From Azoarcus sp. KH32C (GTDB lineage Bacteria; Pseudomonadota; Gammaproteobacteria; Burkholderiales; Rhodocyclaceae): a stretch of 64,000 nucleotides of DNA. The notes below the pieces were generated by a model. That model searched no databases. It had not been told where the DNA came from and saw nothing but the letters and a program-made list of their open reading frames with translations. Shown here piece after piece: positions 1 through 60,425 of this stretch; position 1 is the first letter of the stretch, and each line of letters begins with the position of its first letter. The translations under genes and the position numbers were made by a program. The stretch is taken from NCBI RefSeq assembly GCF_000349945.1, contig NC_020516.1:2870311-2934310 (forward strand). Direction: 5' to 3'.

Positions 1-287
1 TGTTCACGCTGTTCTACAAGTCCGATTCGTCGATGAACGTGTCGGGCTGGAAGAACGAGAAGTTCGACCAGTTGCTGGATGCTGCGCGCGGTGAAACCAA
101 TGAAGCCAAGCGCAAGCAGATGTATGCCGACATGCAGGTGTTGGTGCATGAGCAGTGCGGCGTCGGGATTCCGATGTTCATCAACTCGGTCGACGGTTTC
201 ACGAACAAGCTCAAGGGTTATGGCAGTCATCCGCTGGCCGGCCTCATGGGCTTTGATTTCGCCGAGCACGTCTGGCTCGACGCGTGA
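1..287 (+). CDS. ABC transporter substrate-binding protein, family 5 (DppA/OppA-like), C-terminal fragment (gene starts upstream of window)
   Basis: C-terminal peptide ...GWKNEKFDQLLDAARGETNEAKRKQMYADMQ...FINSVDGFTNKLKGY is typical of the SBP_bac_5 C-terminus. It is followed directly by two DppBC-like permeases and a fused ATPase. Confidence 0.7.
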   Translation, partial: FTLFYKSDSSMNVSGWKNEKFDQLLDAARGETNEAKRKQMYADMQVLVHEQCGVGIPMFINSVDGFTNKLKGYGSHPLAGLMGFDFAEHVWLDA

Positions 288-308: not shown

Positions 309-1262
309 ATGAACGGAACCACTGCAAGACTTGTCCTGAAACGGCTCGGGGTCGGCGTGCTGACCCTGCTGATCGTGTCGGTCGTGATCTTCACGATCAC
401 CGCGCTCTTGCCGGGCGACGCCGCCCAGGCCCTCCTGGGCCAGGACGCTACCCCGGAGACCGTGGCGGCGCTGCGCGCCAAGTTCGGGCTCGATCAGCCC
501 GCCCACCTGCGCTACCTCCAATGGCTGGTGGGCCTGGTCAGCGGCGATCCGGGCAGCTCCCTGGTGAACGGCCTGCCGGTGGCGGAGCTCATTGGCAGCC
601 GCCTGCCCAACACCCTCAAGCTCGCGGCGATTGCCGCGCTGGCCGCAGTACCTGTGGCGCTGACCATCGGCATCGTGTCGGCGATGTTCCGCGGCTCGCT
701 TTTCGATCGCTTCATGAACATGGCTGCGGTCTCCGCCGTTTCGGTGCCGGAGTTCCTGATCGCCACGCTCGCGGTGTTGCTCTTCGCGGTTCATCTGCAA
801 TGGCTGCCGGCGCTGTCGCACGTCTCCGAGATCAACTCCTTCGGCGACATGCTGCATGCCTACGCGATGCCGGTCCTGACCTTGTGCTGCGGGCTGGTGG
901 CCCAAATGGCGCGCATGACCCGGGCGGCGGTGATCGACCAGTTGAGCGCGCCCTACGTTGAGATGGCGATGCTCAAGGGCGCGCGGCCGGTCCGCGTGGT
1001 GCTCACCCACGCGCTGCCGAACGCGGTCGGGCCGATCGCCAACGCGGTCGCCCTGAGCCTGTCCTACCTGCTCGGCGGGGTGATCATCGTGGAGTCGATC
1101 TTCCACTATCCGGGCATCGCAACCCTGATGCTCGACGCCGTCTCCAGCCGCGACATTCCCGTGGTGCAGGCCTGCGCGATGCTGTTCTGCGTGGGTTACA
1201 TGATGCTGGTCCTTGCGGCCGACGTCAGTGCAATCGTTTCGAATCCGAGGCTGCGCAAATGA
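309..1262 (+). CDS. ABC transporter permease (DppB/OppB-like, BPD_transp_1)
   Basis: 317 aa with multiple TM segments. N-terminal MNGTTARLVLKRLGVGVLTLLIVSVVIF motif is characteristic of DppB/OppB permeases. Operon context. Confidence 0.85.
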   Translation: MNGTTARLVLKRLGVGVLTLLIVSVVIFTITALLPGDAAQALLGQDATPETVAALRAKFGLDQPAHLRYLQWLVGLVSGDPGSSLVNGLPVAELIGSRLPNTLKLAAIAALAAVPVALTIGIVSAMFRGSLFDRFMNMAAVSAVSVPEFLIATLAVLLFAVHLQWLPALSHVSEINSFGDMLHAYAMPVLTLCCGLVAQMARMTRAAVIDQLSAPYVEMAMLKGARPVRVVLTHALPNAVGPIANAVALSLSYLLGGVIIVESIFHYPGIATLMLDAVSSRDIPVVQACAMLFCVGYMMLVLAADVSAIVSNPRLRK

Positions 1263-2182: not shown

Positions 2183-2184
2183 CC

Positions 2185-4032
2185 ATGAATGAGATCGTGA
2201 AAGTCAGCGGCCTGCAGGTCGCCGCCCGCAACGCACTGGGCGAGGACGTGCCCATCGTCCATGGCGCGGACTTCGTGCTCGAGAAGGGCGAGGTGCTCGC
2301 GCTGATCGGCGAGTCCGGCTCGGGCAAGACCACCATTGCCCTGTCGCTGCTGGGTTATGCGCGCAAGGGCTGCCGCATCGTGGGCGGATCGGTGCGCATC
2401 TGCAACGTGGACGTGCTCAAGCTCGACCAGGACGAGCTCGCCGGGCTGCGCGGCCGCACCGTGTCCTACATCGCCCAGAGCGCGGCAGCGGCGTTCAATC
2501 CGTCCAAGACCATCATGGACCAGGTGATCGAGAGCGCGCTCATCCACAAGACGATGGCGCGCCGCCAGGCCGAGGCCAAGGCGGTCGGGCTGTTCCGCGA
2601 GCTCGCTCTGCCGGATCCGGAAGGGATCGGCGCGCGCTATCCGCACCAGGTCTCCGGCGGCCAGCTGCAGCGCCTGATGGCGGCGATGGCGCTCATCACC
2701 GATCCGGCGGTGGTCGTCCTTGACGAGCCGACCACGGCGCTCGACGTCACCACCCAGATCGAGGTGCTTCGCGCCTTCAAGAAGGTGGTCCGCGAGCGTG
2801 GCACCACGGCGGTCTACGTGTCCCACGACTTGGCGGTCGTCGCGCAGATGGCCGACCGCATCGTGGTGCTGCAAAACGGTCAGATCCAGGAAAACGGCCG
2901 CACCGAGCAGATCCTCTCCGCACCGGCTCACCCCTACACCCGCAGCCTGCTGGCCGCGATGGACCCCGCCTCCCGGGCCGCCGCGACCGTGAGCACACGG
3001 CAAGACCGGCAGGACGTCATCCTCGACGTGCGCGATCTCGAAGTGCGCTTCGGAAACGGAAAGGCCGGCGGCGGGAAGGTGGTCCTGCACGACATCAACC
3101 TGCAGATCCGCCGTGGTGCGACGGTGGGCGTGATCGGCGAGTCGGGCTCCGGCAAGACCACGCTGGCACGCGCCATCGCGGGCCTGGTCGCCCCGTCCGC
3201 GGGCCACGTCCTGCTCGACGGCAAGGCGCTCTCCCCGACGCTGGAAGGGCGCACGCGCGACCAGTTCCGCCGCGTGCAGTACGTGTTTCAGAACGCGGAC
3301 ACCGCGCTCAATCCGCAGCACTCGATCGAAGCCATCCTGTCGCGTCCGCTCAAGTTCTATCACGGCATGACGAGTGAGCAGCGGCGCAAGCGCGTGGCCG
3401 AGCTCCTCGACCTGGTGCGCCTGCCCCAGAGCGTGGCGCAGCGCCGCCCGGGCGAGCTCTCCGGCGGGCAGAAGCAGCGTATCAACCTCGCCCGCGCGCT
3501 CGCCGCCGAGCCCGACCTGATCCTGTGCGACGAGGTGACGTCGGCGCTGGACACCGTGGTCGGCGCGGCCATCCTCGAGCTGATGGCGGAGCTGCGCCGC
3601 GAGCTCAACGTGTCCTACATGTTCATCAGCCATGACCTCGGCACCGTGCGCTCCATCTGCGACGAGATCGTGGTGCTGTACGCGGGCCGCAAGGTCGAGG
3701 TGCGTCAGCGCGAGGCGAAGCAAGAGCCACCTTTCCACCCTTACTCTCACCTCCTGGACACCTCCATTCCCATGCTGCGCCGCGGCTGGCTGGAGGAGGT
3801 GACCGGACGCACGGCGGCGACGCTGCCGGCCCTTGCCGCCGGCCTCTCGCCGCAGACGGGCCTGTGCCCCTTCATCGACCGCTGTGCCCTGCGGGTGGAC
3901 GGCCTGTGCAATACCACCCCCCCACCGCTGCGGCAGCTCGCGGGCGGCGGCAGCATCCTCTGCCACCGCTCCGAGGAAGAACTCGTCCGCGCCCAGGGGA
4001 CACTCAAACTCGTTACAGGAGAAGCAGCATGA
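2185..4032 (+). CDS. ABC transporter ATP-binding protein with duplicated ATPase domains (DppD/DppF fusion)
   Basis: 615 aa. Two Walker A motifs (GESGSGKTT twice), two ABC signature LSGGQ motifs and Walker B/H-loops. Confidence 0.9.
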   Translation: MNEIVKVSGLQVAARNALGEDVPIVHGADFVLEKGEVLALIGESGSGKTTIALSLLGYARKGCRIVGGSVRICNVDVLKLDQDELAGLRGRTVSYIAQSAAAAFNPSKTIMDQVIESALIHKTMARRQAEAKAVGLFRELALPDPEGIGARYPHQVSGGQLQRLMAAMALITDPAVVVLDEPTTALDVTTQIEVLRAFKKVVRERGTTAVYVSHDLAVVAQMADRIVVLQNGQIQENGRTEQILSAPAHPYTRSLLAAMDPASRAAATVSTRQDRQDVILDVRDLEVRFGNGKAGGGKVVLHDINLQIRRGATVGVIGESGSGKTTLARAIAGLVAPSAGHVLLDGKALSPTLEGRTRDQFRRVQYVFQNADTALNPQHSIEAILSRPLKFYHGMTSEQRRKRVAELLDLVRLPQSVAQRRPGELSGGQKQRINLARALAAEPDLILCDEVTSALDTVVGAAILELMAELRRELNVSYMFISHDLGTVRSICDEIVVLYAGRKVEVRQREAKQEPPFHPYSHLLDTSIPMLRRGWLEEVTGRTAATLPALAAGLSPQTGLCPFIDRCALRVDGLCNTTPPPLRQLAGGGSILCHRSEEELVRAQGTLKLVTGEAA

Positions 4033-4337
4033 CGGGACGATTCGTGAGACTCGCCGAAACCAGCCGCGCGCTTGTGCGCTTCGAACTAGACGGCAAGCCC
4101 GTCGAAGCCCTCGCGGGCGACACGCTGCTCGTCGCCATTCTGAGCAACGGCACGAGCGTGCGCAGCTGCGAGTTCGGCGGGGGCACGCGCGCCGGCTTCT
4201 GCCTGATGGGCGCATGCCAGGACTGCTGGGTGTGGACCGCGGCCGGCGAGCGGCTGCGCTCCTGCACCACGATGGTCGAGGAAGGCATGCAGATCGTAAC
4301 CACCCAACCGGAGGCATCATGGGCCAAGGTCGCGTGA
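4029..4337 (+). CDS. (2Fe-2S)-binding protein, HcnA/opine-oxidase small-subunit-like
   Basis: ATG at 4029 overlaps the ATPase stop. ~102 aa with Cys-rich segments (CEFGGGTRAGFCLMGACQDCWVW) typical of the small 2Fe-2S subunit of HcnABC/sarcosine-oxidase-like complexes. Confidence 0.65.
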   Translation: MTGRFVRLAETSRALVRFELDGKPVEALAGDTLLVAILSNGTSVRSCEFGGGTRAGFCLMGACQDCWVWTAAGERLRSCTTMVEEGMQIVTTQPEASWAKVA

Positions 4338-5695
4338 TCATCGTCGGCGCCGGACCGGCCGGCGTGCGCTGCGCCGAGGCGCTGGTCGCGGCGGGGATCA
4401 GACCGATCGTGGTGGACGAAGGCCGCCGCGACGGCGGGCAGATCTACCGGCGCCAGCCGGAAGGCTTCAACCGCTCCTACCCCACGCTGTATGGGACGGA
4501 AGCCGAGCGCGCGCGCTCGCTGCACCAGACCTTCGAGTCGCTGCGCGGGTCGATCGACTATCGGCCCGAGACGCTCGCCTGGAACATCTTCGACCGGCAG
4601 TTGTACACGGTCTCGGCGGGGGTATCGAAGGCGCTGCCCTTCGACGCGCTGGTAGTGTGCTCGGGCGCGACCGACCGCCTCATGCCCGTGAAGGGCTGGC
4701 ATCGCGCGGGCACCTACAGCCTGGGCGCGGCACAGATCGCGCTGAAGTCCCAGGCCTGCGCCATCGGGCGCCGGGTGGTGTTCGCCGGCACGGGCCCCCT
4801 GCTCTACCTGGTGGCGGCCCAGTACGTGAAGGCGGGCGCGCACGTGGAAGCGGTACTGGATACCTCGAGCCTGTGGAAGCGCGTGTGCGCCCTGCCCAAG
4901 CTCGCCGCCCGCCCGCGGGTGCTGGTGAACGGGCTCTCCCTCATGCGCACCCTGCGCGGCGCCGGCGTGAGGATCGTGACCGGCATCGAGCCGGTGGAAA
5001 TCCACGGCTCGCCCGAAGATGGCGTATCGGGGATCACCTACCGCAGCCGGGACGGCTCGACACACCAGCTGGCGTGCGACGCGGTGGCGCTGGGCTACCA
5101 CGTGCGGCCCGAGACGCAACTCGCCGACCTCGCACGTTGCGAGTTCCGCTTCGATGCCGAGACGCGCCAGTGGCTGCCCGCCGTCGACCAGGACGGCAGG
5201 AGCACCGTGCCCGGCGTGTATCTCGCCGGAGACGGCGCCCGCGTGCTCGGCGCCGACGGCGCGGAGATCGCCGGAAAGCTCGCCGCCTGGGCGCTGCTGC
5301 AGGATCTGGGCCGACCGGTGCCCGAGGCCGAGCGCGACGCCCTGCGCCGCGAACGCGGAGTGATGGACCGGTTCCGCCAAGGCCTGGTCGAAGCCTTCCC
5401 CTGGCCTGCCGAGCAGGCCGCACGCCTGCCCGACGAGGCAATCGTGTGCCGCTGCGAGGCGATCACGGCCGGAGAGCTGCGCCGGGTGGTGAACCAGATG
5501 GGCGCCTGCGAGGCCAACCGGGCCAAGGCCTTCAGCCGGGTCGGCATGGGACGTTGCCAGGGACGGTATTGCGGGCATGCGGGGGCGGAAGTCATTGCGC
5601 ATGCCGCCGGCGTGCCGGTGGAACAGGTGGGGCGTCTGCGCGGCCAGGCGCCGGTGAAACCGCTCTCCATAGCGGTGCGGGAGGAAGTGGAATGA
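4319..5695 (+). CDS. FAD/NAD(P)-binding oxidoreductase, HcnB/OoxA-like subunit
   Basis: Internal start MGQGRVIIVGAGPAGVRCAEAL (dinucleotide-binding GxGxxG). C-terminal BFD-like 2Fe-2S motif (CRCEAITAGEL...CQGRYC). Overlaps neighbouring genes as in an operon. Confidence 0.75.
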   Translation: MGQGRVIIVGAGPAGVRCAEALVAAGIRPIVVDEGRRDGGQIYRRQPEGFNRSYPTLYGTEAERARSLHQTFESLRGSIDYRPETLAWNIFDRQLYTVSAGVSKALPFDALVVCSGATDRLMPVKGWHRAGTYSLGAAQIALKSQACAIGRRVVFAGTGPLLYLVAAQYVKAGAHVEAVLDTSSLWKRVCALPKLAARPRVLVNGLSLMRTLRGAGVRIVTGIEPVEIHGSPEDGVSGITYRSRDGSTHQLACDAVALGYHVRPETQLADLARCEFRFDAETRQWLPAVDQDGRSTVPGVYLAGDGARVLGADGAEIAGKLAAWALLQDLGRPVPEAERDALRRERGVMDRFRQGLVEAFPWPAEQAARLPDEAIVCRCEAITAGELRRVVNQMGACEANRAKAFSRVGMGRCQGRYCGHAGAEVIAHAAGVPVEQVGRLRGQAPVKPLSIAVREEVE

Positions 5696-6837
5696 ACGCG
5701 CGGAAAGCAGATGTCATCATCGTTGGCGGCGGCATCATGGGGGCCGCCACGGCTTTCTTCCTGCGCAAGCGCGGCATGTCGGTCATCCTGCTCGAGCGGG
5801 GATTGATCGGCCAGCAGGCCAGCGGCGTCAACTTCGGCAATGTGCGCCGGATGGGCCGCCCGATCGAGCAACTGCCGCTGGCAAACCGCTCGCGCGAGAC
5901 CTGGCTGAAGTTCAAGGAATTGTTCGGTGACGATGTCGAACTCTTGCTGAACGGCCATCTGCGCGTCGGCTTCACGCCGGCGCACGAAGAACGGATGGCG
6001 AAGTATGCACAGGACGCGAAGGACTTCGGCCTGGATATGCAGATGATGGGCGCGAAAGCGCTGCGCGAACGCTTTCCATACCTGGGGCCGGAAATTACTG
6101 CGGGTTGCTATGCCCCCCACGACGGTCATGCGAACCCCCGTCTCGCGGCACCGATTATCGGCCGTGCAGCGGTGCGCGAAGGCGCGCAGGTGTTCGAAAA
6201 CACCGAGATCGTGAGTGTCGAGAAGGATGGCGAGGACTTCCGCGTGACCGCCGCCGATGGGCGGACCTTCCGTGCGCCCGTGGCGTTGATCACCGCCGGC
6301 GCCTGGGGCGACCGCATCAGCGCCAAATTCGGCGAACCGGTGCCCATGATCGCCAAAGGGCCGCAGATGTGCGTCACCGAACCTGTGCCTTACGCCATCG
6401 GGCCGACCATTGGTGCGATGGCGGACGTGTTCGAACAAGTCGTCTTCTTCCGCCAGGTTGCGCGCGGCAACATCGTCATCGGCGGCGGCGGCCACGAACC
6501 GGTGGATCTGGAGAATCGGCGCGCCTACGTGAACCCGCACAGAACGCTGTTCAAGCTGAAGAATGCGCCGCGCGTGGTGCCGGCGTTCAATCACCTGAAC
6601 ATCATTCGCGTCTGGAGCGGGATCGAGGGTTACATGGAAGACAGCAGCCCGGCCATGGGGCCGAGCGCGCGCGTGCCCGGCCTGTATTACGCGTTCGGCT
6701 TCTCCGGCGAAGGCTTCCAGTTGGGACCGGGCGTGGGCGACGTGATGGCGGAACTGATCCACACCGGCGCCACGACCACCCCGATCGAGCAGTACCACAT
6801 TGGCCGCTTTGCCAAGCAGGCGATGCAGGCGGCGTAG
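5692..6837 (+). CDS. FAD-dependent oxidoreductase, HcnC/OoxB/sarcosine-oxidase-beta-like (DAO family)
   Basis: MNARKADVIIVGGGIMGAATAFFL Rossmann motif. 381 aa DAO-family protein translationally coupled to the upstream subunit. Confidence 0.8.
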   Translation: MNARKADVIIVGGGIMGAATAFFLRKRGMSVILLERGLIGQQASGVNFGNVRRMGRPIEQLPLANRSRETWLKFKELFGDDVELLLNGHLRVGFTPAHEERMAKYAQDAKDFGLDMQMMGAKALRERFPYLGPEITAGCYAPHDGHANPRLAAPIIGRAAVREGAQVFENTEIVSVEKDGEDFRVTAADGRTFRAPVALITAGAWGDRISAKFGEPVPMIAKGPQMCVTEPVPYAIGPTIGAMADVFEQVVFFRQVARGNIVIGGGGHEPVDLENRRAYVNPHRTLFKLKNAPRVVPAFNHLNIIRVWSGIEGYMEDSSPAMGPSARVPGLYYAFGFSGEGFQLGPGVGDVMAELIHTGATTTPIEQYHIGRFAKQAMQAA

Positions 6838-6873
6838 CGTTCATTCATATCCCCATCGAATCGAGAACAAACC

Positions 6874-7629
6874 ATGTCGAATTTGCAGCAAGCAGCGGCC
6901 GTGCTGGCCAACCCGCCATCCTTCGTCGATCTGCGCCAATTTGCGCGAGACAAGAGCCTCGGCATCGTCGTGACAACTTCGGCCGGAGAGGACCGCTTCC
7001 TTTCCAGCCGCCGCATCCTGGACTGGGCACCGGGACTGGTGACGGCGGGCGTCATTACCCTCGAAGCCGGCAGCGGCTCCGTGCAGTCCCTGCCGGCGGA
7101 TGAATTCATCATCGTCAACGAAGGCAGCCTAACCCTGACGCAGCAGGGCTCCACCCTGACGCTGGGGCCGAACCAGAGCGCGGTGCTCAAGCACGGCGCC
7201 GCATTCACCTGGTCCGCACAAGGCCCGGTGTCGCTGATCTTCACCCGTTACAACAAGAGCCAAGCGGGCGACGGTGCCATCGTGCCGATCCAGGAAAACC
7301 CGGAGATGGGACCGTCGGCGGGCGGACCGCTGGCCGAGCTGCTGCTCACGCCGGCGCCGGTTTGCCGCAATTACACCGACTACCGTTCGGCCGACGGCGA
7401 ATTCACCTGCGGTACCTGGGACTCGACGCCCTACACCCGCCGCGCGATGTTCTTCCGCCACATGGAGCTGATGCACCTGCTGGAAGGGAGCGTGACCTTC
7501 GTCGATGAAGCGGGTCGCAGCGGCACGTTCTCGGAGGGCGACATTTTCCTCATCGAGCAGAGGGCCTCTTGCAGCTGGGAGAGCCGCGAGCAAGTGGCGA
7601 AGGTGTACGTGATCTACCGCCCGGCGTAA
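6874..7629 (+). CDS. cupin domain-containing protein (bicupin, DUF861-like)
   Basis: 251 aa with two repeated cupin-like halves, each ending in an EGS/EGD...F motif. No signal peptide. Family assignment is by eye only. Confidence 0.5.
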   Translation: MSNLQQAAAVLANPPSFVDLRQFARDKSLGIVVTTSAGEDRFLSSRRILDWAPGLVTAGVITLEAGSGSVQSLPADEFIIVNEGSLTLTQQGSTLTLGPNQSAVLKHGAAFTWSAQGPVSLIFTRYNKSQAGDGAIVPIQENPEMGPSAGGPLAELLLTPAPVCRNYTDYRSADGEFTCGTWDSTPYTRRAMFFRHMELMHLLEGSVTFVDEAGRSGTFSEGDIFLIEQRASCSWESREQVAKVYVIYRPA

Positions 7630-7640
7630 GAGAAATCTGA

Positions 7641-8297
7641 ATGACCAAGCGCGTTGCCTTTGTCCATACCGTCGGTTTCCTGGTCGAGGATTTCCGGGCG
7701 CGCATTCGCGCCGATGTTCCCGCCGCCGACTGCTTTCATATCCTTAACGAAAGCCTGTTACAAGATCTGTTGCGCGGAGCACCGCAGCCGCTGGTTTACC
7801 GGCGCGTGGTCGATCAAATCGTGCTGGCGGCGCAAGCGCAGCCCGAACTGATCGTCGTCACCTGTTCATCGACGTCTCCGGCCGTGGATATCGCGCGGCG
7901 CATCGTGCAGCAGCCGATCCTGAAGATCGACGACCCGATGGCGTCGGAAGCGGCGCGCAGCGGTCCGCGCATTGGGCTGCTGTGCACGGCAAGCAGCACG
8001 GTAGAACCGAGCAGCGCACTACTGCACGCGCATGCCGCAGAGCAAGGGCGCGAGATCACGATCAAGACGGTGCTGCGCCCCGAGGCCTACCAGGCGCTGA
8101 TGGCAGGCGATCGTGCGGGACACGACGCAATTCTTTATGAAGCGGCTGCCGAGCTTTCCAACGAGGTGGATGTACTGGTGCTTGCTCAGGCCTCGCTGGC
8201 GCATTTGCGCGACACGCTCGCCGCGAAACTCAAATGCCCGGTATTGGCAAGCCCGCCTTTGCTGATGCGGGAAATCGCCAGACTCTGCGCCGAATGA
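7641..8297 (+). CDS. Asp/Glu/hydantoin racemase family protein (EutA / arylmalonate-decarboxylase-like)
   Basis: 218 aa. Conserved Cys-containing motifs of the Asp/Glu racemase superfamily (VVTCSSTSP ... LLCTASST). Confidence 0.65.
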   Translation: MTKRVAFVHTVGFLVEDFRARIRADVPAADCFHILNESLLQDLLRGAPQPLVYRRVVDQIVLAAQAQPELIVVTCSSTSPAVDIARRIVQQPILKIDDPMASEAARSGPRIGLLCTASSTVEPSSALLHAHAAEQGREITIKTVLRPEAYQALMAGDRAGHDAILYEAAAELSNEVDVLVLAQASLAHLRDTLAAKLKCPVLASPPLLMREIARLCAE

Positions 8298-8356
8298 ACC
8301 AATGGCGGTTATCGCCAATGAAATACCCCCACGACCCCTAATCCAAAAATACAGAG

Positions 8357-9349
8357 ATGAAGACGCTGCTGCTCAAGAAAGAGGAAGTCAGCCGATTGAT
8401 ATCCATGAAGGAAGTCATCGGTGCGGTCGAAGAAGCCTACAAGGCCTTCAGCAGCGGCCAGGTGGATCAGCCCCCGTATATCGGGATTCATCTCCCTCCC
8501 CCGCGGGGCGAAATCGACTTCAAGCTCGGATACTACAAGGGCAATGAAGTAATCTCCATGAAGGCGTCTTCTGGAGGCTTCCCCGACAACCAGCGGCTCT
8601 ACGGCGTGCCCAGCGGCATGGGGACCATTCTGCTGTTCGATGCCAGGAGCTGCGCCTTGATCTGCGTAATGGACGGAAGCCTGCTCACCGGCCTCCGGAC
8701 CGGGGCATGCGGCGCCGTTTCGGTAAAGGCGCTGGCGCGGAAGAACTCCAAAAAGATCACCTCCATCGGCACCGGGAATCAAGCCAGGATGCAGATCCGG
8801 GCAATTACCGAGGTCATGAAGATCGAGGAGATCCATGCTTGGGACCACACCCAAGAGTCGCTTTCCAAATACAAAGCGGACATCGAAAACGAATTCGGCA
8901 TTCCCGTGATCATGGGAGGCTCCATGAAGGAAGCTGTGGAGCAGGCCGACATCCTCATTACCACGACCCGGGGAAAAGGCTCGCTGGTGGAAGCCGACTG
9001 GGTAAAACCCGGCACACACATCGTTGCGATCGGCACGGATATGAGGGGCAAGCAGGAATTCGATCCCGAGATCTTCAGGAATGCCAAGATCGTGAATGAC
9101 TCGATCGAGCAGTGCATCGATAAAGGCGAGACCTGGCATCCGTTGAATCGAGGAATCATTGCCAAGGAAGATATCCACGGAGAAATCGGCGAGATCCTGC
9201 TGGGCAGAAAAGCCGGCAGAGAAAATGATCAAGAAATCACGATCTTCGATTCGACCGGAATGGCCATCCAGGACAATACCACCTCGTACAAGATCTATCA
9301 GAACGCAATAGAAGGCAACGTTGGAACCTTCTTCGAATTCATTGCGTAA
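8357..9349 (+). CDS. ornithine cyclodeaminase / mu-crystallin family protein (EutC-like)
   Basis: 330 aa with NAD-binding GTGNQAR Rossmann motif. OCD/mu-crystallin family fold signature by eye. Lies in a lower-GC segment. Confidence 0.85.
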
Positions 9350-9382
9350 TTTCGATCGAAGCCCTCCCCGGAAATAGCCACC

Positions 9383-10354
9383 ATGCGCAACTACCCGACC
9401 ATTCAGGACATTCGCGAAGCCCAGGAACGGCTGAGGCCCCACATCAAGCACACGCCGCTATTGCGTGGAGAAAAGATGGAGAAGGCCCTCGGCTGCCAGG
9501 TATGGCTCAAGCCCGAAACCCTGCAGATCACGGGCGCCTTCAAGATCCGCGGCGCGCTGAACAAGACCCTTTCGCTTCCAAGGGAAGAGATCGCCAACGG
9601 CATCATCGCCACGTCTTCGGGCAATCATGCCCAGGGGCTCGCTTACGCCGCCAGGATGCTCGGCGTAAAGGCGATATTGGTGCTTCCGGTCACCACGCCG
9701 AAGATCAAGATCGCCAATACCGAAGCCCTCGGGGCGGAAGTCATCCTTTTCGATGGCGATAACGCTGCCAGATGGAAAAGGGTGTATGAAATTGCCGAAG
9801 AAATGAATTACGCCGCGGTTCACGCTTTCGAGGACCCTCTGGTGATGGCGGGTCAGGGAACGATCGGCCTGGAGATATTGGAAGATCTGGAAGATGTGGA
9901 CGCGGTGATCATTCCCATGGGCGGCGGAGGCCTTATTTCAGGAATCGCGACCGCCATCAAGGAAACGAAACCTTCGGTGCGTGTAATAGGCGCTGAGCCG
10001 GCCTTGACGCCGAAGTACTTCCACAGCAGGAAGAACAAGGAACGTACGTCGCTGCCCTTGAAGAACACCATTGCGGATGGCTTGAGACTCAGCGTTCCGG
10101 GTCGGAACCCGTTTCCCATTATCGAAAAGTACGTCGATGAAATTGTTCTCGTTGAAGACGAGCACATCATCGCGGCCATGCGCATGCTGGCCAAGGATGC
10201 GAAGTTGATCGCCGAACCCGCCGCGTCGATCGGCATTGGCGCTCTATTGGCCGGCGCCGTAAAGGTCGAAGCAGATGAAAAAGTCTGCGTGGTATTGAGC
10301 GGCGGGAACTGGGACTTGAGCGACCTTGCCGAGATATACGGAGCTGGAGAGTAA
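9383..10354 (+). CDS. threonine/serine dehydratase-like PLP-dependent enzyme (EutB-like)
   Basis: 323 aa. PLP lysine motif (TGAFKIRGA) and GGGGL glycine-rich loop of the PALP family. Lower-GC segment. Confidence 0.85.
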   Translation: MRNYPTIQDIREAQERLRPHIKHTPLLRGEKMEKALGCQVWLKPETLQITGAFKIRGALNKTLSLPREEIANGIIATSSGNHAQGLAYAARMLGVKAILVLPVTTPKIKIANTEALGAEVILFDGDNAARWKRVYEIAEEMNYAAVHAFEDPLVMAGQGTIGLEILEDLEDVDAVIIPMGGGGLISGIATAIKETKPSVRVIGAEPALTPKYFHSRKNKERTSLPLKNTIADGLRLSVPGRNPFPIIEKYVDEIVLVEDEHIIAAMRMLAKDAKLIAEPAASIGIGALLAGAVKVEADEKVCVVLSGGNWDLSDLAEIYGAGE

Positions 10355-10381
10355 GGAGCGGTCGCGTCTGAGGAGACCGTC

Positions 10382-10792
10382 ATGGATGCCCATCCGATCG
10401 CCTATGGCGTTTCCCACCTGAGCCCGCCTCGCCGCCGGGCACCGGACGGCGAGGAGCGCGCGGCGGCCGGCGCCGTCGCGCGGGCCAAGCAGTTCATCGA
10501 AGACAACTTCCGCGAGCCGATCAGCCTCGACGGCCTTGCCGCCCTCGTCGGCCTCACCCGCTTCAGCCTGGCCAAGCACTTCCGCCAGCGCGTCGGCGTC
10601 TCGCCCTACCGCTACGTGTGCGAGGTTCGGGTGCGTCATGCGCAACGGATGATGGCGCAGGGATTTCGGCTGACCGATGTCGCGAGCGAGGTCGGCTTTT
10701 TCGACCAGAGCCACCTTGCCCGGCATTTCAAGCGTAGCTGCGGGATGACGCCGCGGGAATACATCTCGCGCTGCCTGCACACGCGGGTCTAG
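10382..10792 (+). pseudogene. AraC-family HTH-only ORF, probable N-terminally truncated regulator remnant
   Basis: 136 aa containing only the dual HTH_18 region (...LVGLTRFSLAKHFRQRVGVSPYRYV...FFDQSHLARHFKRSCGMTPREY). It lacks the usual ~150 aa sensor domain. It begins exactly where GC content jumps back to ~68% after the low-GC insert. Confidence 0.5.
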
Positions 10793-10850
10793 TCCGGACG
10801 CGCCCCCCTTGGACTGACCGACGTCCCGGGGGATAAATCGACTCCCTTTC

Positions 10851-10888
10851 CCTCGGGGTGCTCCCTTCGACGCCCCGAGGTTTTTTTT
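10851..10888 (+). terminator. rho-independent terminator
   Basis: Perfect 8-bp stem CCTCGGGG / CCCCGAGG with a 14-nt loop, followed by T8. Confidence 0.65.
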
Positions 10889-11107
10889 GCCTGGATGTCG
10901 TCGCGTACACGAAATGTAGAGTCGATCTGTGGCAGCGCACACGCTCGCCTTCGGGCACGCCTGCTTTGATCGGCCGCTTCGGCCAGCCTGAGCATTTCCT
11001 GCACTTCGGCCTTGAGCTGGGCTTCGATCTTTTCGGCGTGCTCGTAGGAGAGCGCGCTGTGCCGATTGGCGTGGCGCAATGAATCGCCTATTCGAAGGTC
11101 CTCGCGG

Positions 11108-12181
11108 TCAGATGTCGAGCACGAGCTGCCCCGACTTGGCGCGCGAGACGCAGATCATGATCTTGTCACCGGCCTTGCGCTCCTTGGCGCTGAGGAATGC
11201 GTCGCGATGGTCGGGCGTGCCGGCGATGACGCCAGTCAGGCAGGTGCCGCAGACGCCCTCGCGGCACGAGGTGGCGACGTCGATGCCGTGCGCGCACAGC
11301 GCTTCGACGATGCTTCTGCCGGCAGCGACCGGGATCGTGCGCCCGGAGCGTTGCAGCTTGACTTCGAAGGCGTCGCTCGGCGCCGTCTTGGCGGCGGGGT
11401 CGGCGCTGAAGTATTCGAGGTGGATCGCGTCGGGCGGCCAGATGCCGGCCGTGACCTCGCCGATCAGATCCGTGAAGCGGCGCGGGCCGCACATATAGAG
11501 GTGGTGGCCCTGCGGGCATTTCCCGAGCAGCGGCTGCAGCAGCTCGCGCACCCGGTCGGCGGCGGGATGGTGGAAGTTCACTTTGTCGGCGTACGGCTCG
11601 GACGAGAGCACCTCATGGAACGCGGTCTCCGCGATCGAGCGCGTGAAGTAATGCAGCTCGTACGAGGCGCCGCGAGCCTGCAGCTCCTGTGCCATCGCCA
11701 GTAGCGGCGTGATCCCGATGCCGCCGGCGATCAGCACGTAATGGCGGGCTCCGTCGACGAGCTCGAAGTGGTTGCGCGGACCGCTGATGGCGAGCGTGTC
11801 GCCGACGCTCACGCGCTGGTGCATTGCGCGCGAGCCGCCGCGCGAGTCGGGCGCGTTCTTGACCGCGATGCGGTACGTGTCGCGCGCGCCCGGCGCGCCG
11901 CACAGCGAGTACTGGCGCACGGTCTCGTCGTCGATCCGCACGTCGATGTGCGCGCCGGCGCTCCAGGCGGGCAGCGTAGAGCCGTCGGCGCTCACGAGCT
12001 CGAACGACTTGATGTCGGCGGCCTCGTCGACGATGCGCCGCACGCGCACCGTCAGCGCCGCGACGGGAGTCTGCACCGGGCGGCGGCCGCGCAGCGACCT
12101 GCGGACCGCGGTCCAGGCGAGCACGATTAGCATGGGAATCGCGAGCGTGGCAATGAGCTGCAAAAGCAGGGAGGTATTCAT
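11108..12181 (-). CDS. PDR/VanB-family oxidoreductase (flavin reductase fold + NAD-binding + C-terminal 2Fe-2S ferredoxin) with N-terminal TM anchor
   Basis: Start chosen at MNTSLLLQLIATLAIPMLIVLAW with a GGAG RBS 6 nt upstream. FAD/FMN-binding RxYS motif (RQYSL). C-terminal CxxxxCxxC...C plant-type ferredoxin motif (CREGVCGTCLTGV...C). Confidence 0.75.
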   Translation of the reverse strand: MNTSLLLQLIATLAIPMLIVLAWTAVRRSLRGRRPVQTPVAALTVRVRRIVDEAADIKSFELVSADGSTLPAWSAGAHIDVRIDDETVRQYSLCGAPGARDTYRIAVKNAPDSRGGSRAMHQRVSVGDTLAISGPRNHFELVDGARHYVLIAGGIGITPLLAMAQELQARGASYELHYFTRSIAETAFHEVLSSEPYADKVNFHHPAADRVRELLQPLLGKCPQGHHLYMCGPRRFTDLIGEVTAGIWPPDAIHLEYFSADPAAKTAPSDAFEVKLQRSGRTIPVAAGRSIVEALCAHGIDVATSCREGVCGTCLTGVIAGTPDHRDAFLSAKERKAGDKIMICVSRAKSGQLVLDI

Positions 12182-12248
12182 CTCAATCTCCGTGCGCCTG
12201 GTCGCGCAACGGCGCAAAGCGCCGTGCGCGTGACAGCGGGCTAGTGAA

Positions 12249-12989
12249 TTACTCGGGCAGGTGGGGCAGCACGAACGACAGCGTCGCCAGGTGTTCGTCG
12301 TGGTTCGTCTTCGCAGGATTCGCAGGGGGCGTGGCGAGCGTTGCCGTGACGACGTTGAGGCCCTGGTTGCGCACCCTGATCGTCGCGATGCCGTCGGCGC
12401 CGGTTTTCAGCGGTTCGGAATCGGGGTCGGTGACGTAGTCGGGCTGCACGCTGGCGCCCTGCACGGGTTTGCCTTCATACAGCACCCGAACCGTGAGCGC
12501 CTGGCCCATCTTGTCCGGCAGTTCCTTCACGAGCGGCACGATCTGCAGCTTGTGGGCGGGCAGTACGGGCGTTGCCACGTCCAGCCGACGCAGGTGCACC
12601 GTGTACTTGACGGTGTGCTCGCTGATCGTCGCATCGGGCACCTCGTCCTTGCCCTTGTTGTGCCACTTGCCGTCGGGCGTCTTGCACCACGGGCCGTTGT
12701 CCAGGATTGCGGCGACGACGGCCGGCTTGTTGTCGGTGTTCACCACGAGCAGCGGGCCGCTGGGCGCCAACTGCGTCGGCACCTCCTTGCCGTCTTGGTC
12801 GTAAGCCGCGACGGTCTTCACCTTGGGCAGACGCTTCACCGCGTCCAGATCGTCAGCGCCGACTCCGTAGATCAGCGCGAGCTGGTTGGAACGCTGCGCG
12901 AACCAGATGCCATGGGCCTGCGCCACGGTCGTGGTGCCGAAGCCCGCAATCACGCTCGCCACGAGCGCAAGTTTGCCGAAAGTCTTCAT
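12249..12989 (-). CDS. DUF4198 domain-containing periplasmic protein
   Basis: 246 aa with signal peptide MKTFGKLALVASVIAGFGTTTVAQA. Family resembles DUF4198/NikM-like proteins usually found with PepSY and outer-membrane proteins. Confidence 0.6.
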   Translation of the reverse strand: MKTFGKLALVASVIAGFGTTTVAQAHGIWFAQRSNQLALIYGVGADDLDAVKRLPKVKTVAAYDQDGKEVPTQLAPSGPLLVVNTDNKPAVVAAILDNGPWCKTPDGKWHNKGKDEVPDATISEHTVKYTVHLRRLDVATPVLPAHKLQIVPLVKELPDKMGQALTVRVLYEGKPVQGASVQPDYVTDPDSEPLKTGADGIATIRVRNQGLNVVTATLATPPANPAKTNHDEHLATLSFVLPHLPE

Positions 12990-13025
12990 TTTTATCTCCT
13001 ATCCTCTATTGGGGGAACATCACAT

Positions 13026-14111
13026 TTAGAAGTTGTGCCTGATGCCGAAGTCGAATCCGTTGGAGGACTTGCCCGGAGCCGTCACGGCGCCGTTCAGGGC
13101 CGAGGCAGACGCGCCTTCATTGGTCACGTGAGCGGCGGCCGTATACAGGGCAGTGCGCTTCGACAACGGATAGACATAACCAAGCGCCCACTTCTTGGCC
13201 GCCGGGCTGCCTGCCGCATCAGTGCCGTAACGCGAGTACGCAACGCGGATGGCTCCGACGCCGGCGGGGATCCGCGCGCCCACCAGCCAGCCCCTGGCGT
13301 TGACCGGACCCTTCTCGTCCCATTCGTACATGCCCATGACCTGGACCACACCGAAGTCATAACTCGCGCCTGCGTTGTTCTGCCGGACGTTGCCCACTGC
13401 GTAGAAGGTCCTGCCGACTGCGCCCGACATCGTCAAATTGCCGGTCGAGTAGATGGCGCGGAGGCCATAGCCGTTGCCGTCCTTGGAGGTTTCGGTACCA
13501 CTGGGGTTTTCGCCCATGTAGTACATGGCGTGGAACTGGAAGCCGGAGCCGCTGAATCCGCCGGGTCCGTATCCGACCGCGGCGGCGTTGAAGCCATGGC
13601 CGTAGAGGTACGAGATGCTGTTGGAGGCGCGGACCAGGGTCGGGCCGGTGATCGCGGAATTCAACACCTGGCTGCCTCCGCTGCCGCTGAGGTCGAATGG
13701 ATCGAAGTCGGCCATGTTCAAGTACTGCGGCACGAAGTCGCGGCCGAGGCGAATCTCACCCCAGTCGCCTCCCACGCTGATGTGCGAACGGCGGTTGAAC
13801 GTGAAGCCCCCACCGCCCACAACACCGGTGGGCTGGTTGTTGGTGTTGGTGGATTGGCCAGTGCCGGTGTCGGCGTTGAAGCCGCTTTCAAGCCAGAATC
13901 CGGCCTTGAGGCCGCTGCCAATATCCTCTGTGCCTTTGAAGGCGATCCTGGAAGCGGCAAGGTAGCCGTTGGCCAGTTGGCTCTCGTTCGAAATGCTGCC
14001 AGTACCACGTGCGACGGCGAGGTCTACGGCACCGAACACGGAGACGTTGGATTGAGCGAAAGCGGTGCCGGCGAGCGAGGCCGCGAGGACCGCGGGTACG
14101 AGTGTTTTCAT
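13026..14111 (-). CDS. outer-membrane porin (Gram-negative porin, betaproteobacterial OmpC-like)
   Basis: Internal start MKTLVPAVLAASLAGTAFAQS (signal peptide). Gly/Asn-rich beta-strand pattern and C-terminal ...GIRHNF with terminal Phe. Confidence 0.85.
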   Translation of the reverse strand: MKTLVPAVLAASLAGTAFAQSNVSVFGAVDLAVARGTGSISNESQLANGYLAASRIAFKGTEDIGSGLKAGFWLESGFNADTGTGQSTNTNNQPTGVVGGGGFTFNRRSHISVGGDWGEIRLGRDFVPQYLNMADFDPFDLSGSGGSQVLNSAITGPTLVRASNSISYLYGHGFNAAAVGYGPGGFSGSGFQFHAMYYMGENPSGTETSKDGNGYGLRAIYSTGNLTMSGAVGRTFYAVGNVRQNNAGASYDFGVVQVMGMYEWDEKGPVNARGWLVGARIPAGVGAIRVAYSRYGTDAAGSPAAKKWALGYVYPLSKRTALYTAAAHVTNEGASASALNGAVTAPGKSSNGFDFGIRHNF

Positions 14112-15202
14112 TGCGCTTGAATTCCCTTGCATTCGACGTGTTTCCGAGAGGCAGTCTGCGTTTTCGCTTTCATCCGGAAGCGTTGCACCGCACCCGTCAA
14201 GGCCAGCCCGGCGAGCGCCAGCGCGAACAGGGTCCACAACACGCGCGCCACGAGCGCGCCCGCCAGGCCCGGGGTGCCGGGCAGCGTGCCAAGGTGCAGC
14301 GGGTAGACGACGTTGAGATAGCGCACGCTCAGCGGCTGCTCGGCGGCGCGCACGACGCGTAGCACCGAGGCGTCGGATGCGCTCACGAACACGTTGTTGA
14401 GACCGATGGGATGCCACTCGTCGCCGCGCATCCGGATGCGCACCTGACCGTTGCGGGGCGGGTAGATGCGAATGGGGCGCGCCTGCGGCAGCGCTGACAC
14501 AGCGGCGACGAGGGCCTGGCCCAGGGTTGCCGTCTGCGGCCCGCTCGCAGCTGGTGCCGCCACGCCGGGTGCAGCGGCCGTCTGACCCGGCCAGGCCGAC
14601 ATCGCTGCACTCGCCCATTCCGGTGAGCGCAGCACGAAGCCGGTCACCAGCATCATCGCCACCGGCAACACGAAGACCGGGCCGATCACGCGATGCACGC
14701 GCCGCCACGGCGTGGCCGGCGGCAGGTGACGCATGCGCAACCAGACCCGCAGCCCCATCGCAACCAGCACCAAGGCGATCAGCGCGATCGCACGCAGCAC
14801 CCAGGGGCCGACGTCAGCAAGCAGCAAGCGTTCGTGCAGGCCGTACAGCAGCGTTCTCGCCTGGCTGCTGTCCGGCCGCAATTCGCCTGCCGTGCCATGC
14901 ACGACATCGATGTCGGCCCAGCCACTTTCGTTGGAACTCGAGGCGAGCAGGCGCACGCTCACAGGCGCCTGCGCGTCAGGCGGCAAGTTCACGTACTCGA
15001 TTTTCGCCGCCGGATATTGGCGCGCCAGTGCGGCCAGGCCCTGGTCCACTGCCGAGGCCCAAGCCTGCACCGCAGGGGGACTCTCCTGCTGCGCCGGCAG
15101 CGGCTGCATCCACAACAGGACCGCGCCACCCAGGGCCTGAATCGCGAGCAGCGGAGCGAGGATCCAACCGAGGCGGCCATGCCATTGGTAAGAGAACTTC
15201 AT
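14108..15202 (-). CDS. PepSY-associated TM helix domain protein
   Basis: 364 aa. N-terminal MKFSYQWHGRLGWILAPLLAIQALGG motif typical of the PepSY_TM family. 4-nt overlap with the porin start. Confidence 0.8.
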   Translation of the reverse strand: MKFSYQWHGRLGWILAPLLAIQALGGAVLLWMQPLPAQQESPPAVQAWASAVDQGLAALARQYPAAKIEYVNLPPDAQAPVSVRLLASSSNESGWADIDVVHGTAGELRPDSSQARTLLYGLHERLLLADVGPWVLRAIALIALVLVAMGLRVWLRMRHLPPATPWRRVHRVIGPVFVLPVAMMLVTGFVLRSPEWASAAMSAWPGQTAAAPGVAAPAASGPQTATLGQALVAAVSALPQARPIRIYPPRNGQVRIRMRGDEWHPIGLNNVFVSASDASVLRVVRAAEQPLSVRYLNVVYPLHLGTLPGTPGLAGALVARVLWTLFALALAGLALTGAVQRFRMKAKTQTASRKHVECKGIQAQ

Positions 15203-15344
15203 ACGACCTCCTGTTCATGGCTGACGGGGTTGCTCGGACGGTTACGAACTTTTCTTATGTAGTGCATCTATGTCTCCTCTTACCCGATGGAGGGGTGTGG
15301 TTATGACGCCGCGCCGGTCCCCACCGCCCGACACGGTGCGGGAA

Positions 15345-16835
15345 TCACCGCTTCAGGTTGCCCTGGCAGACGTATTTCGTATGCATGTACTCGTCGAGGC
15401 CGTAACGGGAGCCCTCCCGCCCGTAGCCGGAATCCTTGACCCCGCCGAAGGGCGCAGCCTCGGACGCGAACGCGCCCTCGTTGACCGCGACGATGCCGGA
15501 CTCCAGTGCGGCGGCGACGCGCCACACCCGATCGATGTCATTGGAGTAGAAGTACGAGGCGAGGCCGTAGGGGGTGGCGTTGGCGATCTCGATCACCTCC
15601 GCTTCGCTACCGAAGCGGAACACCGGCACCACGGGGCCGAAGGTCTCCTCATGCGCGAGCGCCATCTCGGTGGTCGCCCCCGTGATGAGCGCCGGCGAGA
15701 CGAAGTTCGGTCCGAGCTGCCCGAGCCCGCGGGTGCTTCCGAATACGAGCCGGCCCCCCTTGTCGAGGGCGTCCTCGATGTGGCGCAGGATCTTGTCGAC
15801 GGCGCGTGCGTTGATCATCGGACCGATGAGCGCGTCGGGACGGGTGGCGGGGCCCACCGTGAGCTTGGCCATGCGTTCGGCGAGCTTGGCGACGAATGCG
15901 TCGTGCACCGCCCCGTGCACGAACACCCGGTTCGGACTGACGCACGTCTGCCCGCCGTTGCGGAACTTGGCGGTCATCAGTCCGGCCACGGCGGCGTCGA
16001 GGTCGGCGTCCTCGAACACGATGAACGGCGCATTGCCGCCGAGCTCGAGCGAGAGTTTCTTCAGGGTATCGGCCGATTCGCGCGCGAGATGCTTTCCAAC
16101 GGGCGTCGAGCCGGTGAAGGTGATCTTGCGCACGCGTGGATCCTTGAGCCATTGGCCCACGACCGCGGGCGTGGTCTCGCGCGATGCGGTGACGATATTG
16201 AGGGTCCCCGCCGGCAGCCCCGCCTCCTGGGCGAGCCGCAGCAGCGCGAGCGAGGTGAGCGGCGTGTCCTCGGCGGGCTTGCACACCACCGTGCAGCCCG
16301 CGGCAAGTGCGGGCGCGATCTTGCGGGCGATCATTGCCGCCGGGAAGTTCCACGGCGTCACTGCCGCCACGACCCCGACCGGCTCCTTGACCACCGTCAT
16401 GCGGCGCCCGTCCACCGGCGCCGGGATCACGTCGCCGTAGGCGCGCACGGCCTCCTCGGCGAACCATTCCACGTAGCTCGCGGCATACAGCACCTCGCCG
16501 CGGGCCTCGGCAAGCGGCTTGCCCTGCTCGCGCGAGATGATGCGGGCGAGATCTTCCTGGTGCTCGACGATCGAGGCATGCCAGCGCTTGATGAGCTGTG
16601 CGCGCTGGCGTGCGGGGGCGTCGCGCCAGGCGGGAAACGCGGCACTGGCGGCGTCCACTGCCGCTTTCGCATCCGCCCCGCTGCTGTCGACCACCGGCAC
16701 GATGACGCTGTCGTCGGCCGGATCGACGACAGCGAAGGTCCTGCCGTCCGCCCCCTCGCACCAATGTCCTCCGATGAAGTTCCGGGACTGGATAAGGTCG
16801 TCACGCGCCGGCGTGAGGGTCAAGGTCGAAGTCAT
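15345..16835 (-). CDS. gabD: NAD(P)-dependent succinate-semialdehyde dehydrogenase (aldehyde dehydrogenase family)
   Basis: ALDH catalytic motifs (ELGGNAP, Cys in GQTCVSPNRV). Start placed at MTSTLTLTP. The upstream in-frame extension begins with GTG and is probably not translated. Confidence 0.8.
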   Translation of the reverse strand: MTSTLTLTPARDDLIQSRNFIGGHWCEGADGRTFAVVDPADDSVIVPVVDSSGADAKAAVDAASAAFPAWRDAPARQRAQLIKRWHASIVEHQEDLARIISREQGKPLAEARGEVLYAASYVEWFAEEAVRAYGDVIPAPVDGRRMTVVKEPVGVVAAVTPWNFPAAMIARKIAPALAAGCTVVCKPAEDTPLTSLALLRLAQEAGLPAGTLNIVTASRETTPAVVGQWLKDPRVRKITFTGSTPVGKHLARESADTLKKLSLELGGNAPFIVFEDADLDAAVAGLMTAKFRNGGQTCVSPNRVFVHGAVHDAFVAKLAERMAKLTVGPATRPDALIGPMINARAVDKILRHIEDALDKGGRLVFGSTRGLGQLGPNFVSPALITGATTEMALAHEETFGPVVPVFRFGSEAEVIEIANATPYGLASYFYSNDIDRVWRVAAALESGIVAVNEGAFASEAAPFGGVKDSGYGREGSRYGLDEYMHTKYVCQGNLKR

Positions 16836-60398: not shown

Positions 60399-60425
60399 GA
60401 AAGAATTGATGGAGGAGCACACAAA

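Follow-up and report, generated by a model that had tools for sequence, protein, structure and literature searches.

The gene pair and its closest relatives

The window analysed here is a 64,000-nucleotide stretch of DNA from Azoarcus sp. KH32C (contig NC_020516.1, positions 2,870,311 to 2,934,310 of the forward strand), and all coordinates below are positions within it. Near its left end lies a single plus-strand operon, which runs from an ABC importer through the 2Fe-2S, OoxA-like and OoxB-like subunits of a flavoenzyme, a two-domain cupin (bicupin), an Asp/Glu-racemase-like protein, an ornithine cyclodeaminase (OCD)-family enzyme and a pyridoxal phosphate (PLP) enzyme to a short AraC regulator and a terminator. 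This report concerns the adjacent OCD-family and PLP genes, which form the core of a low-GC (guanine plus cytosine) stretch. The initial annotation, made from the letters alone, had placed both open reading frames (ORFs) and their families correctly, together with the racemase-superfamily neighbour (PF01177):

8357..9349, plus strand: OCD/mu-crystallin-family NAD(P)-dependent enzyme, 330 amino acids (aa); PF02423 OCD_Mu_crystall, 265.9 bits (cut-off 24)
9383..10354, plus strand: fold-type II PLP enzyme of the Ser/Thr-dehydratase / serine-racemase group, 323 aa; PF00291 PALP, 287.5 bits

The OCD-family protein is a predicted imine reductase or amino-acid dehydrogenase. It retains the cofactor motif GTGNQA, and its nearest solved structures are the A. 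fulgidus alanine dehydrogenase (1omo), a Pyr2C reductase (6t3e) and an iminosuccinate reductase (6rqa). It stays under the cut-off of every NCBIfam equivalog model; ornithine cyclodeaminase proper is rejected at 143.6 against a cut-off of 350 (NF005762). The translation of the PLP enzyme carries FKIRG, SSGNHAQ and GGGGLISG, and the solved structures closest to it are those of TdcB (2gn0) and serine racemases. It lacks a regulatory C-terminal domain, since positions 1-294 of the 380 in the ilvA_1Cterm profile align, which is the catalytic part only. Identity with threonine ammonia-lyase (IlvA/TdcB) is likewise rejected, at 312.8 against 378.75 for TIGR01127 and 296 against 453 for TdcB. Across NCBIfam and the PDB, the OCD-family protein is about equidistant in sequence from BhcD, EutC, archaeal alanine dehydrogenase and Pyr2C reductase, and the PLP enzyme is about equidistant from BhcB, EutB, TdcB, serine racemase and 3-hydroxyaspartate ammonia-lyase.

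The same pairing of superfamilies is found in BhcB and BhcD of the beta-hydroxyaspartate cycle, which convert beta-hydroxyaspartate to iminosuccinate and then to aspartate. To our knowledge, this is the only such pair for which dehydration followed by imine reduction has been established by experiment. The BhcD structure, 6rqa, is among those nearest to the OCD-family protein. However, membership in BhcB/BhcD is excluded by score (261.7 against 550 and 214.6 against 500), and the BhcA aminotransferase and BhcC aldolase have no counterpart in the window operon, where the pair lies among importer and opine-dehydrogenase genes instead. Judging from these comparisons, the window pair is best described as a very widespread new variant of the "PLP dehydratase + OCD-family reductase" pairing, set in a mosaic opine-type catabolic operon. 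Knowing its substrate would also put to the test the notion that a PLP dehydratase and an OCD-family imine reductase serve as a general means of removing beta-hydroxyl groups from amino acids.

Distribution and mobility

A genome survey restricted to one genome per species returned 80 loci with the OCD gene in alpha-, beta- and gamma-proteobacteria, with OCD protein identities of 77-93%. The PLP gene follows the OCD gene directly in all but one of these loci by tblastn, the exception lying at a contig end, and in the 67 contexts in which both genes had been called they are adjacent every time. The pair family comprises 1224 proteins at E<=1e-40, which bear generic names only, and a search of the accessible literature found no study of the OCD/PLP pair.

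When 6800-11100 was compared with plasmids by megablast, only 8357-10355 was matched, which corresponds exactly to the two genes; the matches have about 79-80% nucleotide identity and lie in Burkholderia, Microvirga, Cupriavidus, Sinorhizobium and Rhizobium replicons, and the flanks found no match. In this respect the initial annotation, which had suggested horizontal insertion, is borne out: both genes are foreign in composition and move horizontally. A tree was built from the concatenated proteins; their mean identity is about 82% between classes, close to the 84-90% within classes. The tree shows clear placements across classes. Cupriavidus and Ralstonia copies are placed within a Pseudomonas clade, and the copy of a Lysobacteraceae metagenome-assembled genome (MAG) falls within the Azoarcus/Aromatoleum clade. 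On this sequence evidence the pair is a module traded among the catabolic islands of soil and plant-associated Proteobacteria, and appears to have moved repeatedly between those of rhizobia, Burkholderia, Pseudomonas, Ralstonia and Azoarcus. Its presence in more than 1000 sequences, near-invariant over three proteobacterial classes, suggests that it performs a common but unassigned step by which amino-acid conjugates from plants or microbes are degraded; assigning the substrate would close an annotation gap in many plant-associated genomes.

The constancy of the pair bears on another explanation, in which the two proteins are independent, ordinary catabolic enzymes, a true ornithine (or lysine or diaminobutyrate) cyclodeaminase like that of the Ti-plasmid occ/noc regions and a catabolic serine/threonine dehydratase, each serving a different amino acid released from the imported compound. 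An OCD gene does adjoin the opine oxidase genes in octopine and nopaline catabolism (PMC4575208), and threonine ammonia-lyase, at 313 against its cut-off of 379, is the best NCBIfam match of the PLP enzyme. Nevertheless, the ornithine cyclodeaminase model is missed as noted above (143.6 against 350), the operon contains no arginase gene, and the two genes stay adjacent in all but one of 80 loci and in 67 contexts whose other genes are unrelated, which favours a joint function. Independent enzymes are accordingly considered unlikely.

Base composition of the low-GC stretch

The initial annotation had described a fall in GC to about 50% exactly across the two genes. The fall itself is real: 8298-10380 is the second-lowest part of the 64 kb, with only the region around 55 kb lower, and lies about 2.3 standard deviations (sd) below the mean of 2083-nt windows (mean 0.649, sd 0.040). 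It is shallower than described, with values of 0.548 for the OCD gene, 0.571 for the PLP gene and 0.559 for 8298-10380, against 0.669 in the left flank, 0.681 in the AraC gene and 0.649 for the whole window; a value of 0.507 is reached only by 300-nt windows around 9001-9450. Nor is the anomaly confined to the two genes. The GC content at third codon positions (GC3) is 0.72-0.73 in the pair and 0.82-0.89 in neighbour genes, and the racemase-like gene, with a GC3 of 0.72, shows the same codon anomaly as the pair. The compositional boundary is thus at about 7640 and not at 8298.

To obtain an expected GC content, both proteins were recoded according to the codon usage in nearby genes. For the OCD and PLP genes the observed values of 0.549 and 0.573 compare with expected values of 0.598 and 0.636, and for the racemase-like gene 0.627 was observed against 0.684 expected. 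The proteins of the pair are also rich in Lys (6.9% vs 2.4%), Ile (10.3% vs 5.0%) and Glu (8.4% vs 5.1%). Because recoding recovers about half of the GC deficit, protein composition accounts for roughly one half and atypical synonymous codons for the other; incomplete adaptation of the third codon positions to the host is therefore part of the deficit.

The dip accompanies the pair elsewhere. In 77 of 79 loci the GC content of the pair is lower than that of its flanks, by 6.8 points on average, and in B. cepacia and S. meliloti it is 10-11 points lower. Where GC3 reaches about 0.87, the GC content of the pair is still 0.63-0.64. A GC dip can therefore be a lasting trait of a conserved mobile module and not the sign of a recent event.

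Age of the acquisition

The low-GC stretch had initially been taken for a horizontal insert. Comparison with close relatives speaks against a recent insertion specific to this genome. Aromatoleum toluolicum T (locus L006 of the survey) is collinear with the window, with 96% identity up to 7631 and 92% over 7630-10887, and the alignments with both L006 and L008 end at 10887. L006, L007 and L008 carry the pair with the junctions of the window and form one clade with KH32C in the pair tree. Besides A. toluolicum, these relatives are an Azoarcus MAG and the Lysobacteraceae MAG, both of which have the OCD/PLP/AraC/terminator junctions and the GC dip as found in the window, and in the nearest relatives the AraC gene is equally short. 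Because the relatives have the same junctions, the pair is an old acquisition in the Azoarcus/Aromatoleum lineage, and to judge from these alignments its arrival predates the split of the sampled relatives.

A recently inserted island, as a category, fits the atypical composition of the stretch but not its presence in relatives, and it comes without the usual marks of mobility. A repeat search for insertion scars found only chance-level matches in the flanks, no ORF of integrase or transposase size is present in 6.8-11 kb, and no tRNA gene lies beside the pair, the nearest being at 31.1 kb.

The spot that does vary is between the cupin and OCD genes, where KH32C has only the racemase-like gene; in the two MAGs this interval is empty. 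In A. toluolicum it contains an additional segment of 2057 bp (L006 7238-9294), which lies between its cupin and racemase-like genes, encodes otnK and otnC, and is lacking in KH32C at 7630-7640. The proteins of this segment pass their equivalog models, with 650 against 350 for 3-oxo-tetronate kinase and 337 against 250 for 3-oxo-tetronate 4-phosphate decarboxylase. The otnK-otnC segment comes and goes among loci; in L022, too, the cupin gene is followed directly by the racemase-like gene.

A 17-codon ORF (MPEFAANLWMMSAGAYV) lies between otnC and the racemase-like gene in A. toluolicum (L006 9191-9244) and is absent from the other loci. We take it to resemble the N-terminus of the 2-oxo-tetronate/hydroxypyruvate isomerases (OtnI/Hyi). 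If it does, it may be a remnant, the racemase-like gene having replaced otnI.

The short AraC regulator

The pair is followed by the last gene of the operon and a terminator:

10382..10792, plus strand: AraC-family regulator with the helix-turn-helix (HTH) region only, 136 aa; HTH_18/HTH_AraC only
10850..10888, plus strand: intrinsic-terminator-like hairpin followed by T8, CCCTCGGGG...CCCCGAGG; ends the operon and the synteny with relatives

The initial annotation had recognized both the AraC gene reduced to its HTH region and the terminator behind it, and had concluded that the insertion clipped a resident regulator. The features stand, but the conclusion does not. A database-wide search at E<=1e-10 gave 86 AraC homologues, all of 99-170 aa and all with HTH_18/HTH_AraC only. 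A pseudogenised two-domain AraC would call for homologues of about 250-300 aa with an N-terminal sensor and is rejected on this count.

Furthermore, six other operons contain AraC homologues of 131-165 aa. Homologues with 50-58% identity and 133-165 aa come directly after opine-dehydrogenase genes in Caballeronia sp. NK8, Paraburkholderia sprentiae and B. pyrrocinia, and the NK8 operon equals that of KH32C minus four genes, from the cupin to the PLP gene. In Halomonas sp. ML-15 and Marinomonas posidonica the short AraC gene follows the fused ATPase of a Dpp-type importer, and in Halomonas it precedes a PLP/OCD pair. The pair is absent from the AraC-closed importer or opine-dehydrogenase operons of NK8, P. 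sprentiae, B. pyrrocinia and Marinomonas. Since all homologues are short and several close operons that lack the pair, the window protein is an intact member of a naturally HTH-only family, and shortness alone does not mark an AraC protein as a remnant. These gene orders imply that, in an ancestor, the block from the cupin to the PLP gene came to lie between the dehydrogenase genes and the AraC gene and left the latter undamaged.

The likeness to the HTH-only regulators MarA and SoxS lies in the AraC DNA-binding region alone; the window protein scores weakly against the MarA, SoxS and RamA models, belongs to a family of its own and is encoded by the last gene of importer or catabolic operons. 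In Rhodocyclales, Burkholderiaceae, Halomonas and Marinomonas (L003, L004, L005, L086, L088), genes of this HTH-only family stand last in Dpp/Nik-type importer or opine-dehydrogenase operons.

The racemase-like gene and the Eut question

The gene preceding the pair was central to the proposal that the three form the EutA/EutB/EutC combination known from ectoine catabolism:

7641..8297, plus strand: Asp/Glu-racemase-superfamily protein; PF01177 Asp_Glu_race, 64 bits

EutABC has been proposed to turn hydroxy-diaminobutyrate (hydroxy-DABA) into DABA (PMC13188858). EutB and EutC indeed show the same pairing of superfamilies as the window genes, with a racemase-superfamily gene nearby and a proposed beta-hydroxyl removal. 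Identity with the Eut proteins is nevertheless rejected for each of the three. The OCD-family protein scores 227.4 against a cut-off of 471.65 for EutC (TIGR02992), and the PLP enzyme scores 225.8 and 250 against about 413 for EutB (TIGR02991/NF005680). The racemase-like protein matches no NCBIfam model at E<=1e-3, EutA included, and no PDB sequence, and its gene is an inconstant partner of the pair. As a positive control, the pair of Rhizobium ruizarguesonis (L058) passes the Eut models with 542 (EutC) and 524/516 (EutB), and it shares only 32% and 33% identity with the window pair.

A stable trio is not supported either. The racemase-like gene stands beside the pair in only 5 of 67 contexts, and it is absent from L007 and L008, two of the three closest relatives. 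Where present, it mostly comes after otnK-otnC. In S. meliloti LMB1 (plasmid pA, L091 6992-9007), a 30%-identical homologue is directly followed by an OtnK that scores above its cut-off, so that the association of this racemase-like subfamily with OtnK holds at deep divergence. Because of the association with otnK and otnC, the functional link of the racemase-like gene is with the metabolism of four-carbon keto sugar acids and not with the pair. The L091 racemase-like and OtnK genes themselves sit within a PotA-type ABC transporter cluster.

The idea that a recent insertion delivered a hydroxyectoine-type EutA/EutB/EutC trio and truncated an AraC gene already in place has the shared superfamilies and a real GC dip to recommend it. 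The Eut cut-offs are missed widely while the control passes, a racemase-like gene tied to otnK/otnC gives no EutA match, the short AraC is the norm of its family, and relatives share the arrangement. Moreover, EutD/EutE and Ehu/Ueh are not found among the operon genes, which include no peptidase_M24 or AstE/AspA family member and no EnuR. Taken together, these findings render the idea very improbable.

The neighbours of the L058 pair that passes the Eut models (15609-19361) encode a DAO-type flavoenzyme, a Cupin_3 protein with one domain and ABC permeases for polar amino acids; eutD and eutE are not among them. The set of cupin_3, DAO, PLP and OCD genes thus recurs in two deeply diverged, paralogous versions, the window type and that of L058.

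Operon context and proposed mechanism

The remaining genes of the operon lie upstream of the racemase-like gene:

1..287, plus strand: periplasmic substrate-binding protein (SBP) gene of the importer, 3' end, clipped by the window edge; tblastn 48% identity over 94 aa to the SBP_bac_5-type neighbour family c7
309..1262, plus strand: ABC importer permease, DppB/NikB/Opp2B-like; PF00528 + PF19300
1259..2182, plus strand: ABC importer permease, DppC-like; PF00528, OppC_N
2185..4032, plus strand: fused double ATPase, DppD/F, NikD/E- and CntD/F-like; 2x ABC_tran + oligo_HPY
4029..4337, plus strand: small 2Fe-2S subunit, OdhC-like, of a three-subunit flavin opine-dehydrogenase-like enzyme; PF13510 Fer2_4, 88 bits
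4319..5695, plus strand: OoxA/OdhA-like alpha subunit, start approximate; Pyr_redox_2, Fer2_BFD and SO_alpha_A3 domains
5692..6837, plus strand: OoxB/OdhB-like catalytic beta subunit, DAO family; PF01266 DAO, 231 bits
6874..7629, plus strand: two-domain cupin (bicupin), Cupin_3/DUF861 type; PF05899, two stretches

The position of the clipped gene at 1..287 agrees with that of the SBP genes in L002, L004 and L007. The permease at 309..1262 has Opp2B, GsiC, Opp1B and NikB as its top NCBIfam matches, every one under its cut-off, and the ATPase scores 379.7 for CntD, against a cut-off of 380, and 381 for NikE. The permease and ATPase parts of the importer (309-4032) thus match nickel- or metallophore-type models (Opp2B, NikB, NikD/E, CntD) best, not dipeptide models, and these scores are a weak hint that the operon substrate could be a metal-chelating opine-type compound. 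A scan of 6.8-11.3 kb found no sigma-70-like promoter site, and the bicupin had no match in the NCBIfam search.

The start ATG of the 2Fe-2S subunit gene overlaps the stop codon of the ATPase gene. This subunit is 58-68% identical to (2Fe-2S)-binding proteins of L003-L005, and the OoxA/OdhA-like subunit is 68-72% identical to its counterparts there. By Pfam matches and gene ends, an OdhABC-type enzyme is encoded, with a 2Fe-2S gamma, an OoxA-like alpha and a DAO-type beta subunit in tandem and overlaps at 4029/4032 and 5692/5695. The C-A-B order of subunit genes has been reported for the Odh of B. thailandensis (PMC4575208). With OdhABC and the Oox-Nox systems of Ti plasmids accompanied by ocd (PMC4575208), the window shares the three-subunit flavoenzyme, the C-A-B order and the position beside an ABC importer and an OCD-family gene, which is the classical layout of opine catabolism. 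It differs from them in that the importer is of the Dpp/Nik/Cnt type and not the polar-amino-acid type, arginase is lacking, the score of the OCD-family protein sets it apart from ornithine cyclodeaminase, and a bicupin and a PLP dehydratase are extra. The initial annotation had pointed to this context, an opine-oxidase-like enzyme with a Dpp-type importer in place of Ehu/Ueh and EutDE, as indicating that the substrate is not ectoine but a different derivative of an amino acid, cyclic or N-substituted, and in this it agrees with the present analysis.

Most of the 67 contexts have a gene for a DAO-family flavoenzyme among those flanking the pair, often immediately upstream of it; the monomeric c4 type accounts for 35 contexts and the OdhB type for 15. 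A bicupin stands beside the pair in 25. Other recurrent flanking genes encode Lrp regulators, HAD-II hydrolases, aldehyde dehydrogenases, GNATs and class-III aminotransferases. The varying upstream enzymes and transporters and the near-invariant pair suggest that the pair handles a common small intermediate fed by various imported compounds.

The reading favoured here, tentatively and at somewhat less than even confidence, is that the pair would be a BhcB/BhcD-like dehydratase and imine reductase whose reactions follow that of a flavin opine dehydrogenase. By analogy, an imported N-substituted (opine-like) amino acid would be cleaved by the flavoenzyme, the PLP enzyme would dehydrate a beta-hydroxy amino acid product to a 2-enamine/2-imino acid, and the OCD-family enzyme, using NAD(P)H, would reduce the 2-imino acid to the corresponding amino acid. 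The net outcome would be a nitrogen-conserving "dehydroxylation". The strict adjacency of the OCD and PLP genes fits the hand-over of an unstable imine, and it is this adjacency, together with family resemblance, that speaks for the dehydratase product as the substrate of the reductase.

Several observations weigh against this reading. None of the curated equivalog models is reached by the pair, and the sequence does not reveal the order of the two reactions. About a quarter of the 67 contexts have no flavoenzyme gene nearby, so that the pair need not be coupled to an amine dehydrogenase. The KH32C operon may be partly decayed, since it is without the otnK and otnC genes of its closest relative. 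Finally, extreme purifying selection could explain the identity of about 82% between classes as well as transfer could.

The order of reactions might also be the reverse. DauA and DauB of Pseudomonas aeruginosa are a precedent for imine salvage, in which the flavoenzyme would oxidise a D- or N-substituted amino acid to a 2-imino acid, the OCD-family enzyme would reduce it to an L-amino acid, and the PLP enzyme would deaminate the L-beta-hydroxy amino acid to a 2-oxo acid and ammonia. Consistent with this order, a DAO-family gene often lies immediately upstream of the pair and in most alpha-proteobacterial loci points in the same direction, the OCD gene precedes the PLP gene, and the alanine dehydrogenase and Pyr2C reductase whose structures are nearest use free imino or keto acids. 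On the other hand, the imine formed by a flavoenzyme from an opine-type secondary amine hydrolyses to its two halves without a reductase, the pair is also found without a nearby flavoenzyme, and both known PLP-dehydratase/OCD-family pairs, Bhc and Eut, are thought to act dehydratase-first. Imine salvage is therefore regarded as possible but doubtful.

Extending the dehydratase-first reading, the operon family might degrade an unrecognised opine-type compound, nicotianamine- or phytosiderophore-like or another N-(carboxyalkyl) amino acid, which would enter through a Nik/Cnt-like importer. Its keto half would be a four-carbon keto sugar acid for otnK/otnC, with the racemase-like protein as a new tetronate isomerase, and its amino half would be a beta-hydroxy C4 amino acid "dehydroxylated" by the pair. 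This proposal is speculative and quite improbable as a whole; if it were true, the pair would constitute a third, very widespread lineage of dehydratase/imine-reductase modules. A C4 amino-acid pathway would fit the azetidine-2-carboxylate-hydrolase-like HAD-II proteins, GNATs, class-III aminotransferases, APH-like kinase and aldehyde dehydrogenases of other loci. The type II HAD neighbour matches L-azetidine-2-carboxylate hydrolase (3smv) and related entries with 70-82 bits. The nicotianamine/azetidine idea is a low-probability lead, as this match is modest and the accessory genes of other loci (kinase/aminotransferase/Lrp, HAD-II, GNATs) are all missing from the window.

Further observations on the surrounding DNA

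Downstream of the pair in L006, L007, L019, L021, L035, L056, L072 and others are genes for an APH-like kinase, a class-III aminotransferase-like protein and an Lrp regulator, as well as a HAD-II hydrolase, GNATs and aldehyde dehydrogenases. Past the terminator, synteny between the window and A. toluolicum is lost for about 4.4 kb (10888-15281 against L006 12532-17889). In this break the minus strand of KH32C encodes a PDR-type FNR/2Fe-2S reductase (11108-12217) and a secreted protein of 246 aa (12249-12989), and there is also an ORF of 560 aa; A. toluolicum has kinase/aminotransferase/Lrp genes in their place. Synteny resumes at an aldehyde dehydrogenase gene (15345-16892, minus strand).

A deeper low-GC stretch lies at 55000-61000, with a GC content of 0.48-0.60 in 1-kb windows and, for 2-kb windows, a minimum of 0.506 near 54950; Rfam gave no match there, so the stretch is not rRNA. 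The sole Rfam match in the window is a tRNA gene at 31102-31171 (RF00005, 46 bits).

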